DNA from: Escherichia coli
Lineage (GTDB): Bacteria > Pseudomonadota > Gammaproteobacteria > Enterobacterales > Enterobacteriaceae
DNA length: 64,000 nucleotides
Assembly (NCBI RefSeq): GCF_003334785.1
Contig: NZ_QOWV01000003.1
Strand: one strand, 5' to 3'
Shown: piece after piece, positions 20,006 through 27,398 of the stretch
How positions within the stretch are numbered: the first letter of the stretch is position 1
Layout: every line of letters begins with the position of its first letter
Program-made: the position numbers and the translations under genes
The notes under the pieces: generated by a model
The model's database searches: none
What the model saw: the letters and a program-made list of their open reading frames with translations, nothing else
Told to the model about the DNA's origin: nothing

Positions 20006-22153
20006 TTACGCCAGTGCCGCTTCGCGCAGGCGAGTTTTCAACTTGTTGTACTCGTCAATCACGTACTGCTCGGCGGCGCGCTGATCGGCGATCGGCTCGA
20101 CGCGAACGGCGCAGTATTTGTACTCCGGCGTTTTCGTAATCGGGCTTAAGTTTTCAGTAACCAGCTCGTTACAGGCACCAATCCACCACTGGTAGGTCAT
20201 GTAAATCGCCCCTTTGTTCGGACGATCGCTGACCTGCGCACGGGTGATAATTTTGCCTTTACGCGAGTGCACCCAAACCAATGCCTCATCTTCAATACCC
20301 AGACGTTTGGCGTCTTCGGTATTGATTTGTGCGTAGCCAGGTTCATCAGCCAGCGCCGCCAGTGCCGCACAGTTACCGGTCATCGAACGGCAAGAGTAGT
20401 GACCAACTTCACGCACCGTTGACAGTACCATCGGGTACTCGTCGGTGAGTTTGTCGATTGGCGCTACCCAGTCGCAGGTGAAGAACTGCGCCAGACCGTT
20501 CGGGGTATCAAACTTCTCTTTAAACAGATAAGAAGTCCCCTGATCGGCATCTGAAGTATCGCGGCAAGGCCACTGAATGAAGCCCAGTTCGCCCATTTTC
20601 TCGTAAGTCGCACCGTAGAAATCCGGGCACAGATGACGCAACTCATCCCAGATCTCCTGGGTGTTGTTGTAGTGCATCGGATAACCCATACGGGTGGCGA
20701 TTTCACTGATGATTTGCCAGTCCGTTTTCAGATCCCATTTCGGTTCAACCGCCTTGAAGAAACGCTGGAAGCCACGGTCAGCCGCAGTAAACACGCCTTC
20801 ATGCTCGCCCCACGACGTTGACGGTAAAATAACATCCGCCGCCGACGCGGTTTTGGTCATAAAGATGTCCTGAACGATAACCAGTTCCAGATCTTCAAAG
20901 GCTTTACGTACTGCCGACAGCTCCGCGTCAGTTTGTAGCGGATCTTCGCCCATAATGTACGCGGCACGCACTTCGCCATGCGCTGCGCGGTGCGGCAGCT
21001 CGCTGATGCGATAGCCGGTATGCGCTGGCAGGCTTTCCACGCCCCAGGCTTTGGCGAATTTCTCGCGGTTAGCCGGATCTTTCACGTACTGGTATCCCGG
21101 ATACGTATCCGGCAGCGCGCCCATATCGCAGGCACCCTGAACGTTGTTCTGACCACGAACCGGGTTAACACCCGCATGCGGCTTACCGAGGTTACCGGTC
21201 AGCATCGCGAGGCTGGTCAGAGAACGCACGGTTTCCACGCCCTGGTAGAACTGGGTTACACCCATGCCCCACAGGATGGCGGCGCTTTTCGCCTGGGCAT
21301 ACATCCGTGCCGCCTGACGAATCTCACTGGCGCTGACGCCGGTGATATCTTCAACCGACTCCGGCGTGTAGCCTTCAACGATTTTACGATACTCTTCAAA
21401 GCCTTCTGTACGTGAAGCGACGAACGCTTTGTCGTACAGATTTTCTTCAATAATGACATGGCCCATCGCATTCAACAGCGCGATGTTCGAGCCGTTTTTC
21501 AGTGCAATGTGCATGTCAGCAATGCGCGCGGTTTCAATTTTGCGCGGATCGCAGACGATAATTTTCGCCCCGTTACGTTTAGCGTTAATTACGTGATTCG
21601 CCACGATTGGGTGGGAATCCGCCGGGTTGTACCCGAAAACGAACACTAAATCGGTATTATCAATTTCGTTAATAGCATTGCTCATTGCGCCATTACCGAC
21701 CGATTGGTGCAGACCTGCAACCGATGGGCCGTGTCAGACACGAGCGCAGCAGTCAACGTTATTGGTACCAATAACGGCGCGCGCAAATTTTTGCATTACA
21801 TAGTTGGTTTCGTTACCCGTACCACGCGAGGAGCCGGTCGTCTGGATGGCATCCGGACCGTACTTCTCTTTGATGGCGCTCAGGCGCTCGGCAACGTAAT
21901 TCAGTGCCTCATCCCAGGAAACAGGTTCGAGTTTGCCGCCACGCTGGCGACGGATCATGGGGGTTTTCAGGCGCGGGGTCAGGATCTGGGTATCGTTAAT
22001 GAAGTCCCAGCCATAATAACCCTTCAGACACAGGGTACCCTGGTTGGTTTTCCCCTGCGCTGCCTCCGCCCGGACGATTTTGCCGTTATCGACGACCAGG
22101 TTGATTTTGCAACCTGATGCGCAATAGGGGCAAACCGTGACGACTTTTTTCAT
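20006..22153 (-). CDS. fdhF: Formate dehydrogenase H, selenocysteine-containing molybdoenzyme (in-frame UGA = Sec140)
   Basis: Track ORFs 21734-22153 and 20006-21685 are in the same frame, separated by one in-frame TGA (plus-strand TCA at 21734-21736); combined 715 codons; N-terminal CPYCASGC Fe-S motif. Confidence 0.95.
21690..21736 (-). other. SECIS stem-loop directing selenocysteine insertion at the fdhF UGA
   Basis: mRNA reads UGACACGGCCCAUCGGUUGCAGGUCUGCACCAAUCGGUCGGUAAUGG directly 3' of the UGA, matching the fdhF SECIS as I recall it. Confidence 0.85.
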
Positions 22154-22202
22154 CGGTCTCGCTCCAGTTAATCAAATCACGCATACGCGCTCTCGACTAC
22201 AG

Positions 22203-22222
22203 TATGCATCTTTTATGCCACA
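22203..22222 (-). promoter_or_regulatory. Sigma-54 (-24/-12) promoter of fdhF
   Basis: Minus strand TGGCATAAAAGATGCA (TGGCA-N7-TGCA) upstream of the fdhF start; FhlA upstream activating sequences expected further upstream, near 22270-22345. Confidence 0.7.
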
Positions 22223-22350
22223 TTTTATGTGGGGTCATTCCCTGATATTACGGGCACTATTTATTCAAAACTCTGACGAAAAACAGGCTGTCGTCAGTTT
22301 TGACGTGACGAAACGAAATACCGCGTGACAGCCATCACGCGGCAGACATT

Positions 22351-23817
22351 TTATTTTTTCTCGACGACGGGACCTGCCTGATACCCGCCGCCCAGCGATT
22401 TCATCAACTGAATGCTTTGGATCACCCGGCGGCTGTCCAGCATCAGTAATGACATCTCTTCGGCAAGCACTGGCAACCGGGCTTCGGTGGCCTGTAAGCG
22501 GCTGGTTAAGCCGCGCTGATAGGCGGCCTCGGCAGCGCGCTGGGTAAAGCGCGTGGCTTCCACGCGTTCAGCCTGCATTTCTCGCTCGTCGTTGAGCGTT
22601 TGCAGACGCGTGCCGTTGACGGCAACGTCACGCACCGCGTTCAGTACTGACTGGTTGTAACGTTCAATCATCATGTTGCTGGCGGCGCGCGTGCCTTCGA
22701 GATTGGCATTCAACCGTCCACCGTCAAACAGCGGCAATTTCAGACCCGGGATGAAGTTGAACTGGCGACTGGTTTTTTTGAATAAGGTATGCAGATGGAT
22801 GGAGTCCAGACCGAAAAACGCTTTGATATCAAAGCTCGGATAGAACAACGCCCGCGCGGAATCCACCTGATCTAATGACGCCTGAACATACCAGCGCATG
22901 GCTTGCAGATCCGGGCGTCTGGCGAGCAACTCATAAGAGAGTGTCGCCGGAATGCCGGTCTGGACTTGCGGTAATGCCACCGGTCTGATCTCCGGCATAT
23001 CGCTGGCTCCCGCGCCAATCAATGCACGCAGAGATTCTCGCGTTTCGGTGATTTGCCCTTTGACGGCAACAATTTGTTTATCGACCGCCAGAATCTGTGC
23101 CCGCGCGCCGTGGAAAGGCACTTGCGCTTCCAGACCGTGCGCCACTTTACTCTGGTGCGCTTTCACCGCGTAATCAATCACATCGTGAGTTTGTTCTAAC
23201 AGATCGAGCATCTGATAGCTGGCCTGCATACTGTAATAAAGCTGCGCTACGCCCGTGGCCAGCGATAGCTCTACTGCTGCGGTTTCTGCCAGCGCGGCAT
23301 TATGCGCGCCAATGGCGGCGGCAACCGCTGAGCGATGCACACCCCACAAATCAAGATCCAGTCCGGCAAACAAACCTACTGTGGCTTCCGTATAGTACGG
23401 CCCGTCCATACCCAGTGCTGGCGCATCCATTGAATAAGGGCTTAAAAAGCCGTTCGCCGAGACACGTTGGCGGTTGAGCATCCCTAACGCTGCGACCTGT
23501 AATTGTGAACCGGCATCTAACAAATCGGCCTGGGACTGCGCTTTTTCTTCCCGCAGTTTCGCTTCGGCGAGGGTGTGTGAACCACTTAGCGTCCGTTGGA
23601 TCAGCGCATCCAGCTGCGGGTCATTGAGTTGTTTCCACCACTGCGCCTGCGGCCAGCCGGAGCTGGCAAGATGAATATCGTCGGCCAGTTTGATTTGTTC
23701 CGGTTTGAGCTGTTGATGAGGTGCAGAATCCTTACGTACCAGGGCACAGCCGGAAATCAGCGTCGTGCTGCCGAGAATGCTGCACAACAGCAGACGTGAA
23801 AGTTGACGATTGATCAT
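22351..23817 (-). CDS. mdtP: Outer-membrane efflux factor (OMF) lipoprotein
   Basis: 488-aa ORF with lipoprotein signal (LISGCA); last gene of the ytcA-mdtNOP cluster. Confidence 0.9.
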   Translation of the reverse strand: MINRQLSRLLLCSILGSTTLISGCALVRKDSAPHQQLKPEQIKLADDIHLASSGWPQAQWWKQLNDPQLDALIQRTLSGSHTLAEAKLREEKAQSQADLLDAGSQLQVAALGMLNRQRVSANGFLSPYSMDAPALGMDGPYYTEATVGLFAGLDLDLWGVHRSAVAAAIGAHNAALAETAAVELSLATGVAQLYYSMQASYQMLDLLEQTHDVIDYAVKAHQSKVAHGLEAQVPFHGARAQILAVDKQIVAVKGQITETRESLRALIGAGASDMPEIRPVALPQVQTGIPATLSYELLARRPDLQAMRWYVQASLDQVDSARALFYPSFDIKAFFGLDSIHLHTLFKKTSRQFNFIPGLKLPLFDGGRLNANLEGTRAASNMMIERYNQSVLNAVRDVAVNGTRLQTLNDEREMQAERVEATRFTQRAAEAAYQRGLTSRLQATEARLPVLAEEMSLLMLDSRRVIQSIQLMKSLGGGYQAGPVVEKK

Positions 23818-25865
23818 TGCGTGGCTCCTTGTGCCTGTTCCGTGGCGGGCGTTAATGCCGGGGCTGTCCAGTCTGGCAAGCGGGCGAAAAGCTGGCAGAC
23901 GTGTTGCTCCTGTTTTAATAAGGTGGGCAGGATGGCCTGAGAGGCGGGTGTCTCTTCAAGCGTTATTTGAGGAGAACGGCTGAGTGCGGTTGCCAGACCG
24001 GCAGCGTATTTCTCCAGGGCGTCGGCAAACTGACCTGCTCTGTCCGGCTGTAGTGCGTTATCCAGCGCCTGCGCCGAGTTCCAGGTGGCATCCCAGGCGT
24101 GAAGAAGATCGCGGCCCTGACGAATAACCGTTTGCGAACGTTCAATCAGTAATGCGCGTTCTTCGCTGTCCAGTTGACGCTCCAGCGCCACGCGTTGGCA
24201 CATCTCTTCACAGGCATTAAACGCCGCATGCAGACCGATACGAATTTGCAGATAAGTGCGCAGAGCCGTGACTTCCTGCTGGCGTGGGATCCGCATTACT
24301 TTACTTAACATACCCAGCGTGCCAGCCAGTTTTTGCGGCAGTGTGCGCGCTTCACTTTCAGGCCAGACAAAGGTGTAAATCACCGCGGACACCACGGTAC
24401 CAATGATGATACCCAGGGCGCGATCGCGAATTTCCACCAGGTCGTACACTGGGCCAAAAACGTTTTCGAGCGTGGCGAGCGCGAAGGTGACCACCATCTG
24501 TGTGCCGATATAAGAAGAGCGTTCAGAGCTGGTGGCAATCCATGCGCCCAACAGGAAAATCGGTGCCAGCACAAACAGCAATTCGACAATATTGTCCAGC
24601 CAGGGCATGACCAGTAGCGTGAATAACAGCGCCAGAATCGCGCCGCAAAAGGCCCCGCCAAAACGCAGCACCATCTTCTGGTACGACGAACCGACATTTG
24701 GGTTAGCGACGATCACGCATGTCAGCATACAGGTGTGAATGCCTTCCCAGTCCACGCCGCTGTAAAAGGTGTAACAGATCAAACAGGCGAGCAGCGTTTT
24801 TACCGCGTAGCGCATATAGTCTGGATTGGTAAAAGCATCGGCGGCCATTGATGGCGGTTTGGCTGCGGGCGTTGGCGGCGTATTCGGGTCCATCTGACCC
24901 AGTTGTAACAACGTCTGGCAGATATTCTCCAGGTTACATTCCCGTGCCGCCATCGCTTCACTTTCACTGATCCGCCAGTCGCTTTGCCAGCACTGACCTT
25001 CAGCAACGGCATGCTGCAGCTTGTTGATTTCTGAAGCTAATTTTTGTCGGAATTCAATAATTGCCTGAGAATCAGCAAAAGAGGTGGGATCGTAGCGATT
25101 CAGCGTCGAGTAAATGTAGGTTACCGTTGCCACGCAGCTTTGCCACCATGCGTTTTGAGTTCGCCAGTTGGCATCGTCCGCGAGGCAAAAGACATTGAGT
25201 TTTTGTAGCGCCAGCGCCTCTCTTTCAATCCGCGTTTCGGGTAGCGGTGCGAGGCTGTCTGTCAGGTGACTAATGGCATCATCAAGCCGATCATTAAGCG
25301 CCTGATGCATTTGCGAAATGGCACGACTGGGAAACCACAGCACGCCGATTAACGTCATCAGCAAGGTTGGATAGAGGCCAACAACGATACACCACAGCGT
25401 TAAGCGCACGACCACTTCCGGATAGTCGAGCATGGCGGGGAAGGTTTGCCCGTAAATAGCGACAATGGCGACGGCGAAAAAGACCAGCCCCAAGCGATGG
25501 GTGCGCATCAAAAACATGCAGCCCATCAGGATCGGTCCGGCGATGATCAATCGGATCAACGGTTCGCCGTATGACCATTTGTAGATCAAAAACAGGCTGC
25601 CGATCTCCAGCACCGTGGCAACCACAAACAAGATCGCGACAAATTTGGTGTAAAACGCGTTCGACTGAATACCGTAAAACAGCACTGCCAGCGATAACGC
25701 CACAAAAGGGATCTCAAAGGTCATCGAGATCAGAATCACCAGCAGGCAGCCTACCCAGAGTTGCACGGTCTGCGGCACGCGACCTGGTCGCCGCTCGCTT
25801 AACTCTTCATGAAAGAACGCCAGCAGCCTGACCACCGGTAATGGCAGGGAGTTGAGCGCGCTCAT
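23814..25865 (-). CDS. mdtO: Inner-membrane efflux protein (AaeB/PET-type)
   Basis: 683-aa membrane ORF overlapping mdtP and mdtN. Confidence 0.9.
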   Translation of the reverse strand: MSALNSLPLPVVRLLAFFHEELSERRPGRVPQTVQLWVGCLLVILISMTFEIPFVALSLAVLFYGIQSNAFYTKFVAILFVVATVLEIGSLFLIYKWSYGEPLIRLIIAGPILMGCMFLMRTHRLGLVFFAVAIVAIYGQTFPAMLDYPEVVVRLTLWCIVVGLYPTLLMTLIGVLWFPSRAISQMHQALNDRLDDAISHLTDSLAPLPETRIEREALALQKLNVFCLADDANWRTQNAWWQSCVATVTYIYSTLNRYDPTSFADSQAIIEFRQKLASEINKLQHAVAEGQCWQSDWRISESEAMAARECNLENICQTLLQLGQMDPNTPPTPAAKPPSMAADAFTNPDYMRYAVKTLLACLICYTFYSGVDWEGIHTCMLTCVIVANPNVGSSYQKMVLRFGGAFCGAILALLFTLLVMPWLDNIVELLFVLAPIFLLGAWIATSSERSSYIGTQMVVTFALATLENVFGPVYDLVEIRDRALGIIIGTVVSAVIYTFVWPESEARTLPQKLAGTLGMLSKVMRIPRQQEVTALRTYLQIRIGLHAAFNACEEMCQRVALERQLDSEERALLIERSQTVIRQGRDLLHAWDATWNSAQALDNALQPDRAGQFADALEKYAAGLATALSRSPQITLEETPASQAILPTLLKQEQHVCQLFARLPDWTAPALTPATEQAQGATQ

Positions 25866-26896
25866 TATTGCGGCTCAAGATTAGCGACTGCCGAAGCGCC
25901 GATGCGGAACATTTCCGGGTCAGGTTTATCGACCATGATTTTGACCGGAAAACGCTGGGCAACGCGGACCCAGTTAATAGAACGAGACACTTTCGGCAGG
26001 CCGCCCAGCACCAGGCCGCCGTCATCCGGTAGCACGCCGTAGCCAATCGAATCCACTTTACCCTCGAAGGTTTTGCCGCTGTCACTCATCAGGCGAATCG
26101 TTGCGGGTGTACCTGAGCGAATATTTTTCAGATCGGTTTCGCGGAAGTTGGCGATCACATACCAGTGACGAGTGTCGATTAGGGTAAAAATAGGGCGCAT
26201 GGCAGAAGCAAATTGCCCGACGGAGGTTTTGAGGGAAATGACCCGGCCATCAAACGGCGCGCGAACGGTCGCCATTTCCAGATGCAGTTTGGTCAGGGCA
26301 ATATCCGCTTCGACCGCCGCACGCTGGGCAACTAATGCATCCACGCCGCTGACGGCGCTGGCGGCTGACTGCGCCTGTAACAATACGGCATTAAGATCCG
26401 CTTCTGCGGCGCGCTGCGCCGTTCTTGCACGGTCAACATCTTCCGCTGAGACAAAACCTTCTTTCAGTAATGGCTCGGTGCGGCGTAATGTATCTGTGGC
26501 CTGTTTCGCGGCGGCACGGGCTTTTTCTACCGTGGCATTAACCGAGTCGGCACCAAACTGTTGCGCGTCAACGCTACGCTGGGTGAGCATAATTTGCTTA
26601 TCCAGCGCCGCGAGGGAGGCTTCAGCTTTCGCCAGATTGGCTTCGTACGGGCGCGGGTCGATGCGGAACAGCAAATCGCCCTGTTTGACTGCCTGGTTGT
26701 CGGTGACCGCCAGTTCTACAATGCGGCCGCTGACTTCCGGTACCACATCAATGGTATCTGCTGACGCGTAAGCGTCATTAGTTGATGGCGCACTGTCTAC
26801 GCGCCAGATAACGAAAACAAGGGCAACCAGCGCCAACGCAACCACTAACAGAGCAGGGAATTTACTGCGAGGAGCTTTTTTCGGCGTACTTTCCAT
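25865..26896 (-). CDS. mdtN: Membrane-fusion (periplasmic adaptor) protein
   Basis: 343-aa ORF with N-terminal TM anchor and HlyD-like coiled-coil region. Confidence 0.9.
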   Translation of the reverse strand: MESTPKKAPRSKFPALLVVALALVALVFVIWRVDSAPSTNDAYASADTIDVVPEVSGRIVELAVTDNQAVKQGDLLFRIDPRPYEANLAKAEASLAALDKQIMLTQRSVDAQQFGADSVNATVEKARAAAKQATDTLRRTEPLLKEGFVSAEDVDRARTAQRAAEADLNAVLLQAQSAASAVSGVDALVAQRAAVEADIALTKLHLEMATVRAPFDGRVISLKTSVGQFASAMRPIFTLIDTRHWYVIANFRETDLKNIRSGTPATIRLMSDSGKTFEGKVDSIGYGVLPDDGGLVLGGLPKVSRSINWVRVAQRFPVKIMVDKPDPEMFRIGASAVANLEPQ

Positions 26897-26914
26897 GAGC
26901 GCGTCTCAAATAGA

Positions 26915-27190
26915 TTAGAAAAATGCCAGCCAGAACAGCATGGCGTAGAGAGCAAAAAGGGCGGTATAAATAATTCCGACAAATGCCAGATTGATATTTG
27001 CCCGCTGAATAACTCGCCTCGTGATGAGCGTCAAAATAAGGCTGGCAATGGCGCAGAAAAACCAGCTGGGATAATAAGCGCCGATCACCGGGATTGCCGG
27101 AGATAATGAGCATCCCGAAACCATGAAGACGGGAATTATCCAGGCTGTTTTTTTGAGTTGCATCGCCATGCGAGAGAGAACTGTTGGCAT
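26915..27190 (-). CDS. ytcA: Small lipoprotein preceding the mdtNOP efflux genes
   Basis: 91-aa ORF from MPTVLSRMAMQLKKTAWIIPVFMVSGC (lipobox VSGC) plus two TM segments. Confidence 0.75.
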   Translation of the reverse strand: MPTVLSRMAMQLKKTAWIIPVFMVSGCSLSPAIPVIGAYYPSWFFCAIASLILTLITRRVIQRANINLAFVGIIYTALFALYAMLFWLAFF

Positions 27191-27398
27191 ATTAAATACA
27201 TCCTGTCTGCTGCGAACAATATCTGTAGTGAATATCAATATCCATTGAAGGCGTCAGTATGGCTATTTTCTTGATGAATAAAAATAGCTTTATTCAGCCA
27301 CCGCATTCATAACTTATATATTTTATTTATTAATTGGCTGTATATATTTTTAAAATAAATACTTTTGGGGGCTTCAGCGCCCCCAAAAGCGAGTGACA

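Follow-up and report, generated by a model that had tools for sequence, protein, structure and literature searches.

The question raised by the ytcA-mdtNOP locus of Escherichia coli is what a small lipoprotein gene does at the head of an efflux operon. The window, i.e., the whole stretch of DNA that was analysed, comprises 64,000 nucleotides of contig NZ_QOWV01000003.1 (assembly GCF_003334785.1), and the locus lies in a 5.3-kilobase (kb) part of it, 22100-27420, which matches E. coli K-12 MG1655 at 100% identity; of 5426 complete E. coli genomes, 5391 contain at least 80% of this queried stretch. The answer favoured here is that ytcA probably encodes a stable small fourth subunit of the MdtN-MdtO-MdtP efflux system. 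From gene linkage and homology, we infer that the YtcA protein would associate with MdtO and/or MdtN and affect efflux.

The RefSeq annotation of the region lists fdhF, mdtP, mdtO, mdtN, ytcA (as "YtcA family lipoprotein") and yjcS, all of which are on the minus strand. The four genes of the cluster are as follows.

26915-27190, minus strand: ytcA coding sequence (CDS), 91 amino acids (aa) plus stop, a predicted small inner-membrane lipoprotein of the YtcA family (list of open reading frames (ORFs), RefSeq, Pfam PF17090)
25865-26896, minus strand: mdtN, periplasmic adaptor (membrane-fusion protein), EmrA/EmrK-like (NCBIfam NF007785, 535 bits; TIGR00998, 420 bits)
23814-25865, minus strand: mdtO, inner-membrane permease of the FUSC family (NCBIfam NF008510, 1370 bits; Pfam PF04632/PF13515 on cluster relatives)
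22351-23817, minus strand: mdtP, outer-membrane channel lipoprotein of the NodT/outer-membrane factor family (NCBIfam NF007390, 1024 bits; TIGR01845)

The ytcA stop codon is separated from the mdtN ATG by 18 base pairs (bp), mdtN and mdtO overlap by 1 nucleotide (TAATG), and mdtO and mdtP overlap by 4 nucleotides (ATGA). Coordinates and junction sequences thus agree with a preliminary description of this DNA, which had placed ytcA 18 bp ahead of three co-oriented, overlapping efflux genes. That description gave the cluster a span of 22351-27238, of which the mdtP end holds; position 27238, however, is the TTG of the longest mechanical ORF (107 aa), and the annotated ATG of ytcA is at 27190.

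The NCBIfam equivalog matches of MdtO, MdtN and MdtP are all well above the curated cut-offs, and the cluster fits a FUSC-type tripartite efflux system, with a FUSC permease, a periplasmic adaptor and an outer-membrane factor encoded in one operon with overlapping genes. No model in NCBIfam matches YtcA. The assignment of MdtO to the resistance-nodulation-division (RND) or major facilitator superfamily (MFS) pumps was considered and ruled out, given that only FUSC-family models were matched. In published resources, the PLSDB resistance-gene table calls mdtN, mdtO and mdtP "major facilitator superfamily (MFS) antibiotic efflux pump", and MdtO is described as an RND component homologous to AcrB in PMC8672772.

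Linkage of ytcA to the pump genes

A total of 100 YtcA-family loci were compared, 82 of them ascertained by YtcA (80 from a genome scan and two metagenome contigs) and 18 by MdtO. The genome scan covered one genome per species and was queried with an 18-sequence subset of YtcA proteins, with a sample biased towards GAYFPDW[LMI] proteins; its 80 loci come from Burkholderiaceae, Pseudomonas, Serratia, Pantoea, Nitrosomonas and others. The two added contigs were obtained by exact-sequence look-ups (P0101 and P0117), and the other distant representatives lie mostly on contigs shorter than 2 kb.

An MdtN-like adaptor gene is directly downstream of ytcA on the same strand in 99 of the 100 loci. An MdtO-like FUSC gene is also present in 96 of the 97 loci with enough sequence, and an MdtP-like channel gene in 79 of the sampled loci. 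Among annotated loci, the spacing between ytcA and the adaptor gene ranges from 6 bp (Klebsiella) to 84 bp (Pantoea). On L009 and L010, two short metagenome contigs that share one YtcA homologue, the channel gene is upstream of ytcA instead; on L009, which extends downstream, ytcA is still directly ahead of the adaptor gene.

The linkage was also examined from the permease side, by a tblastn search with MdtO against 72,556 plasmids and chromids, which returned 42 records, from which 18 non-E. coli loci were taken. All 18 have an ORF matching the YtcA hidden Markov model (HMM) immediately upstream of the adaptor gene. These loci are from alpha-, beta- and gamma-proteobacteria, in the genera Citrobacter, Klebsiella, Pantoea, Proteus, Photobacterium, Burkholderia, Paraburkholderia, Caballeronia, Cupriavidus, Ralstonia, Ensifer and Roseibium. 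A word-indexed protein search with MdtO gave close enterobacterial relatives only and was not used for this purpose. The co-conservation of ytcA and mdtN across genomes, which the preliminary description had proposed as a check, is therefore seen from both directions. Frequent absence of ytcA where mdtNOP is present, which it had named as the outcome that would speak against a pump accessory, was not seen in the 18 MdtO-ascertained loci, the genome sample being motif-biased and taxonomically clumped.

Two variants of the surroundings were observed in the sampled loci. In six Pseudomonas loci (L051, L056, L069, L079, L087 and L089, at ~9300-10400 in each), the ytcA-adaptor operon carries a compact FUSC gene (a 356-aa ORF in L051). 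The matches cover MdtO residues ~14-180 and ~328-505, i.e., both membrane halves, with the large soluble inserts missing, and no MdtP-like channel gene was found within 8 kb downstream at these loci. On a Burkholderia pyrrocinia plasmid (L093, 8587-12094), a MarR regulator gene and a pqiA-pqiA-MlaD-family-pqiC set directly follow the ytcA-mdtNOP-like operon; the proximity of these neighbours, of envelope lipid-transport type, may be a coincidence.

Predicted lipid anchor and hairpin of YtcA

YtcA matches Pfam PF17090 with E = 1.7e-15 and 57.7 bits, the full model (1-62) aligning to residues 30-91. The elements of the protein, in coordinates of the window, are as follows.

27110-27190, minus strand: lipoprotein signal peptide, codons 1-27, with lipobox V-S-G-C and the Cys27 codon TGC at 27112-27110 (sequence, family conservation)
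27053-27100, minus strand: residues 31-46, PAIPVIGAYYPSWFFC, the motif that is best conserved in the family, consensus PSIxVLGAYFPDWLFC (80-sequence alignment)
26999-27067, minus strand: first predicted transmembrane helix (residues 42-64), with the cytoplasmic loop R-R-V-I-Q-R at its end (AlphaFold2, hydropathy)
26921-26980, minus strand: predicted transmembrane helix 2, residues 71-90, holding the invariant W87 (AlphaFold2, hydropathy, alignment)

The N-terminus, MPTVLSRMAMQLKKTAWIIPVFMVSGC, has a K-K n-region, a hydrophobic core and the lipobox V-S-G-C27, which agrees with the pattern [LVI][ASTVI][GAS]C. It is predicted to be a textbook lipoprotein signal, with 26 residues before Cys27. Beyond the signal, the hydropathy profile has two hydrophobic stretches (~40-57 and 64-91). 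The AlphaFold2 model has a mean predicted local distance difference test score (pLDDT) of 81 and block means of ~88-96 for residues 41-90, yielding a confident helical hairpin in which helices 42-64 and 71-90 are joined by the basic loop. Residues 28-41 are without helix in this model, such that motif residues 31-41 are non-helical and residues 42-46 open helix 1. YtcA hence has the features of the PF17090 family, namely a lipobox Cys, then the PSIxVLGAYFPDWLFC-type motif, then two hydrophobic helices. The prediction of a 91-aa lipoprotein with two transmembrane helices had already been made in the preliminary description, and lipobox, hydropathy and modelled helices agree with it. YtcA is also listed among predicted E. 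coli lipoproteins (PMC7139219).

An exhaustive phmmer search over 1.84 billion representative proteins yielded 264 representative clusters (50% identity) matching YtcA at E<=0.001. Among the listed representatives of 65-180 aa (n = 138, mostly ~70-130 aa), 122 satisfy the lipobox regular expression, with the Cys preceding the PSIxVLGAYFPDWLFC motif. In the 80-sequence alignment, G26, C27, P31, G37, P41, W43, C46 and Y75 are conserved in at least 90% of the sequences, and W87 is invariant. The lipobox Cys is present in 98 of the 100 locus-derived homologues, 8-16 residues ahead of the motif. At position +2, D never occurs, and the residues seen are S, A, V, T, K, N, H and R. The two exceptions are the Roseibium aggregatum protein (L105, 3698-3982), whose Ala-rich signal (…SASAAAPS…) resembles a signal-peptidase-I site, and the Paraburkholderia silviterrae protein (L047, 7989-8210), whose ORF opens with the conserved motif, in the manner of DUF1656 proteins. 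Given that one exception has an export-type signal and the other starts at the motif, this suggests the job of the N-terminal region is to put the N-terminus in the periplasm.

CyoA, a subunit of the respiratory oxidase cytochrome bo3, has a large periplasmic domain. It is an E. coli lipoprotein with transmembrane helices (PMC7139219), and in this respect resembles predicted YtcA, with lipidation of a Cys followed by helices in the inner membrane; the two share neither homology nor function, and mature YtcA would be little more than a hairpin. This precedent bears on whether YtcA is a lipoprotein at all, as its N-terminal hydrophobic stretch could instead stay uncleaved and form a third transmembrane helix. 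AlphaFold2 also draws residues 5-27 as a helix, and Asp at +2, the inner-membrane retention signal of enterobacteria, occurs in no homologue, both of which would fit such a protein. We nevertheless consider it highly improbable, since the lipobox Cys occupies an invariant position in nearly all homologues and the lipobox recurs across the representative clusters, and since the exceptions carry either a signal-peptidase-I-like export signal or no signal at all.

The ratio of nonsynonymous to synonymous substitution rates (dN/dS) against Citrobacter freundii is 0.35 for ytcA, 0.05 for mdtN and 0.12 for mdtO. The ytcA gene is under purifying selection, weaker than that on mdtN and mdtO. A dN/dS below 1 is among the reasons why the small reading frame is hardly to be regarded as mainly an upstream ORF that sets mdtN expression by coupling or leader-type control, its protein having no efflux role. 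Such control would fit the 18-bp distance to mdtN and the single transcription unit between terminator-like hairpins described below. Yet the amino-acid motif and the lipobox Cys are conserved in proteins only 25-40% identical overall, the protein is homologous to a membrane-protein family, and the spacing to the adaptor gene varies from genus to genus. This explanation is already disfavoured, and is the least probable of those considered.

Relation to DUF1656 and to other FUSC pumps

That membrane-protein family is DUF1656, to which AaeX and YdhI of E. coli belong. An hhalign comparison of the YtcA family with AaeX plus YdhI gave a 90% probability, with E = 1.6e-6 over 51 aligned columns (YtcA 31-79, AaeX 5-55), and paired VLGAYFPDWLF with VFGLSFPPIFF as well as the helix and basic loop that follow. 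The match of YtcA to Pfam DUF1656 (PF07869) is weak and partial (E = 0.0016, 18.8 bits, residues 35-66 on model positions 4-35 of 56), and a local AaeX/YdhI HMM also matches YtcA weakly (E = 0.011). The DUF1656 alignment from a word-indexed AaeX search is narrow, the search having given close enterobacterial relatives only. Given the hhalign match and the reciprocal weak HMM matches, which agree with it, YtcA is best described as a remote DUF1656 homologue of a predicted lipid-anchored branch, i.e., a DUF1656-type hairpin that would have gained a lipoprotein signal. In the PDB, no sequence relative of MdtO or of the YtcA family was found, and DUF1656 gave only a non-significant match to neuroserpin (E = 0.69).

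Members of the DUF1656/AaeX family (AaeX, YdhI, Burkholderia FusD) are, like YtcA, small two-helix membrane proteins encoded beside adaptor and FUSC genes, with a G-x-x-(Y/F)-F-P-x-x-(F/L)-F motif before helix 1 and a basic loop after it. They are typically short (~65-80 aa), start at the hairpin and have no cleavable signal, and here YtcA differs, with its predicted 26-residue signal peptide and conserved lipobox Cys; AaeX (67 aa) and YdhI (78 aa) have neither. YtcA further differs from DUF1656 proteins in pairing specifically with the MdtN/MdtO subfamily, usually together with a dedicated outer-membrane channel gene.

The FUSC-type pumps of the aromatic acid exporter family (TC 2.A.85: AaeAB, YdhJK, Bucl8-FusCDE and FuaABC) follow the same general operon logic as MdtNOP, in which the FUSC permease MdtO goes with an adaptor and an outer-membrane channel; MdtNOP is set apart by its YtcA-type small protein and EmrA-like adaptor. 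In the E. coli K-12 paralogous operons aaeX-aaeA-aaeB and ydhI-ydhJ-ydhK, the small DUF1656 gene leads, with the adaptor gene second and the FUSC gene last. Eight loci with AaeB-like FUSC genes were sampled. All six with an adaptor gene also have a DUF1656 gene, while both solitary FUSC genes lack adaptor and small gene alike. The order is permease-small-adaptor in five of the six, in contrast to the small-adaptor-permease-channel order of MdtNOP, and adaptor-permease-small in the remaining one, from Azospirillum. The latter (L111, 4004-7249, on an Azospirillum lipoferum plasmid) is alone among the sampled cases in that its small gene does not lie right before the adaptor gene.

Taking the permease-ascertained loci together, a small sample, the small protein is encoded at all 24 adaptor-linked FUSC loci and at neither of the 2 solitary ones. 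In MFS pumps, EmrA-type adaptors are not known to need such a small protein; if they do not, it is the FUSC-adaptor pairing, and not the adaptor family, that the small protein accompanies. A fourth component has been proposed for relatives of this pump. DUF1656 genes cofit with adaptor and FUSC genes in transposon fitness data, from which a fourth pump component was proposed (bioRxiv 10.1101/072470), and Grund et al. called Bucl8-FusC-FusD-FusE a "tetrapartite" pump on the basis of operon structure (PMC7682875), stating that the location and function of FusD, a 67-residue protein with a domain of unknown function, were unknown. A statement cited in PMC8277102 is that deletion of aaeX lowered biofilm formation.

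With these relatives in view, the favoured role of YtcA can be put as follows. The precursor, made first from the operon, would be exported by means of its lipoprotein signal peptide, cut before Cys27 and acylated, and the mature protein of ~65 residues would stay in the inner membrane as a two-helix hairpin. Given the positive-inside rule, both of its ends would be periplasmic and the short, positively charged loop cytoplasmic, with the conserved PSIxVLGAYFPDWLFC segment following the lipid anchor at the periplasmic face and running into the start of helix 1. Within the membrane, YtcA would lie against MdtO and the anchoring segment of MdtN, since such small proteins accompany FUSC-adaptor pairs and not solitary FUSC genes, and it may help to assemble, stabilise or couple the permease-adaptor complex.

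A wider reading, put forward tentatively and with less confidence than the subunit role itself, is that all adaptor-coupled FUSC pumps (MdtNOP, AaeAB, YdhJK, Fus and Fua) might be obligately four-component. The YtcA/DUF1656 hairpin could then serve as a coupler embedded in the membrane, through which a permease that has hardly any periplasmic domain engages its adaptor. In the MdtNOP branch, a lipid anchor would have been gained that fixes the conserved N-terminal motif of the coupler at the periplasmic face.

Several points weigh against a stable subunit. According to PMC8672772, Valderrama et al. 2019 described a delta-tolC strain with an 8.9-kb deletion (alsR...yjcS-ytcA-mdtN) that is resistant to pyrrolomycin and armeniaspirol, and in which a further deletion of mdtOP abolishes the resistance. 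Since mdtOP can act there without ytcA or mdtN, YtcA is not strictly required in that setting. AaeX/YdhI and AaeA/YdhJ might substitute for YtcA and MdtN in this strain. In addition, ytcA evolves faster than mdtN and mdtO. The scan was motif-drawn and dominated by Burkholderiaceae and Pseudomonas, and its loci are not phylogenetically independent. The one locus without an adaptor gene, in Pararobbsia alpina (L035, 7941-8225), is an orphan, intact-looking ytcA (HMM E = 3.5e-29) that lacks adaptor, FUSC and channel genes in its neighbourhood; its own strand carries no following ORF of adaptor size, and the longer ORFs directly downstream lie on the other strand. Finally, gene linkage would look alike for a structural subunit and for an assembly factor.

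As an assembly or insertion factor, YtcA would work on MdtN or MdtO for a time only, while these are inserted into the membrane or the complex forms, and be left out of the finished pump. The position of ytcA, first in the operon and just before the adaptor gene in E. coli as in nearly all sampled loci, would suit such a factor, and the linkage data by themselves fit it as well as they fit a stable subunit. The protein, however, has no chaperone-like domain, its mature form is only the hairpin, and in the sampled DUF1656-type operons the small gene is between or after the permease and adaptor genes, such that being made first is not general. This makes a purely transient role improbable.

The deletion strain bears more directly on a third possibility, that YtcA is a dispensable modulator which tunes substrate preference or activity in the manner of AcrZ with AcrB, the pump assembling and working without it. 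AcrZ has 49 residues, a single helix and no signal peptide, is encoded away from acrAB, and modifies the drug profile of its pump. Like the proposed YtcA, it is a small inner-membrane accessory of a multi-component pump, in its case AcrAB-TolC, of the RND type (PMC7682875). YtcA, in contrast, is a predicted lipid-anchored two-helix hairpin encoded in the operon, its neighbour MdtO being of FUSC and not RND type. A modulator would account for the mdtOP-dependent resistance that persists without ytcA and mdtN (PMC8672772), for the weaker constraint on ytcA, and for the loss of the lipobox in L047 and L105, which indicates that the N-terminal part tolerates change. On the other hand, the near-universal retention of ytcA beside the adaptor gene in alpha-, beta- and gamma-proteobacteria is tighter than expected for an optional part, and DUF1656 homologues share fitness phenotypes with their pump genes (bioRxiv 10.1101/072470). 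Moreover, the strain described also lacks the adaptor MdtN and so says little about the normal tripartite state. A dispensable modulator is accordingly considered unlikely, yet it is the most serious competitor to a stable subunit.

The preliminary description had proposed that ytcA might be an unrecognised pump accessory comparable to AcrZ. The accessory part is supported by the co-conservation with mdtN and mdtO and tempered by the ytcA-mdtN deletion strain, in which YtcA is not strictly required (PMC8672772). As to its being unrecognised, the literature search returned no paper that gives YtcA a role or ties it to DUF1656, the query "ytcA" retrieving mostly the APOBEC motif "YTCA"; its DUF1656 relatives, however, had already been proposed as a fourth component. 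The idea of a small pump accessory largely holds, but the comparison with AcrZ is loose, the closest analogue being DUF1656.

Flanks of the operon and significance

The elements flanking the cluster are as follows.

27361-27390, minus strand: strong terminator-like hairpin after yjcS, a 12-bp stem followed by a T-rich tail, ATTTATTTTA (consensus scan; inverted repeat I2)
27191-27360, minus strand: AT-rich upstream region (~41% G+C, ~170 bp), expected site of the ytcA-mdtNOP promoter (composition profile)
22319-22344, minus strand: terminator-like hairpin right after the mdtP stop (consensus scan; inverted repeat I3)
22205-22220, minus strand: sigma-54 -24/-12 element TGGCATAAAAGATGCA, which belongs to fdhF and not to the pump (pattern search, 2 mismatches to TGGCAC-N5-TTGCA)

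Given the terminator-like hairpins after yjcS and after mdtP, ytcA-mdtNOP looks like a single transcription unit of its own. A sigma-70 consensus scan of 27191-27360 found zero sites on the coding strand. This region is packed with short A/T-rich direct and inverted repeats.

The 3' flank of the cluster is shared with the sigma-54 promoter of fdhF, as the preliminary description had noted: the element spans 22220-22205, which places it 52-67 bp ahead of the fdhF ATG (22153), and the interval between the element and the hairpin that follows mdtP holds direct and inverted repeats of TGACGA type. In fdhF itself (20006-22153, minus strand), an in-frame TGA at 21734-21736, after 139 codons, splits the frame in the ORF list, and RefSeq annotates the gene as one continuous CDS. 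The TGA presumably is selenocysteine codon 140 of formate dehydrogenase H.

On the other side, an alkyl sulfatase gene is just upstream of ytcA in E. coli (yjcS, 27399-29396), in Citrobacter freundii (L091, 1473-3458) and in a metagenome contig (L004, 4145-6187) whose YtcA is only 45% identical to that of E. coli. The gene was considered as a conserved partner of the module and rejected, as it adjoins ytcA in only 2 of the 100 loci and is missing from the other 98.

The impact on antibiotic resistance is probably modest, MdtNOP being a minor pump in E. coli, one that can compensate for the loss of TolC against protonophore antibiotics (PMC8672772). Nor would this be a new kind of system: YtcA is a predicted lipid-anchored addition to the small pump-associated proteins already known. 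For work on these pumps, the proposal means that the small protein should be included when FUSC pumps, of which the PDB search yielded no solved relative, are reconstituted or imaged, and that genetic work on MdtNOP needs to take possible cross-complementation by AaeX and YdhI into account. The ytcA gene is one of the E. coli K-12 y-genes lacking an assigned function, and the proposal would give it a specific role as the small subunit of MdtNOP, tying ytcA-mdtNOP, aaeXAB, ydhIJK and the Burkholderia fusaric-acid pumps into what may be one four-part design.

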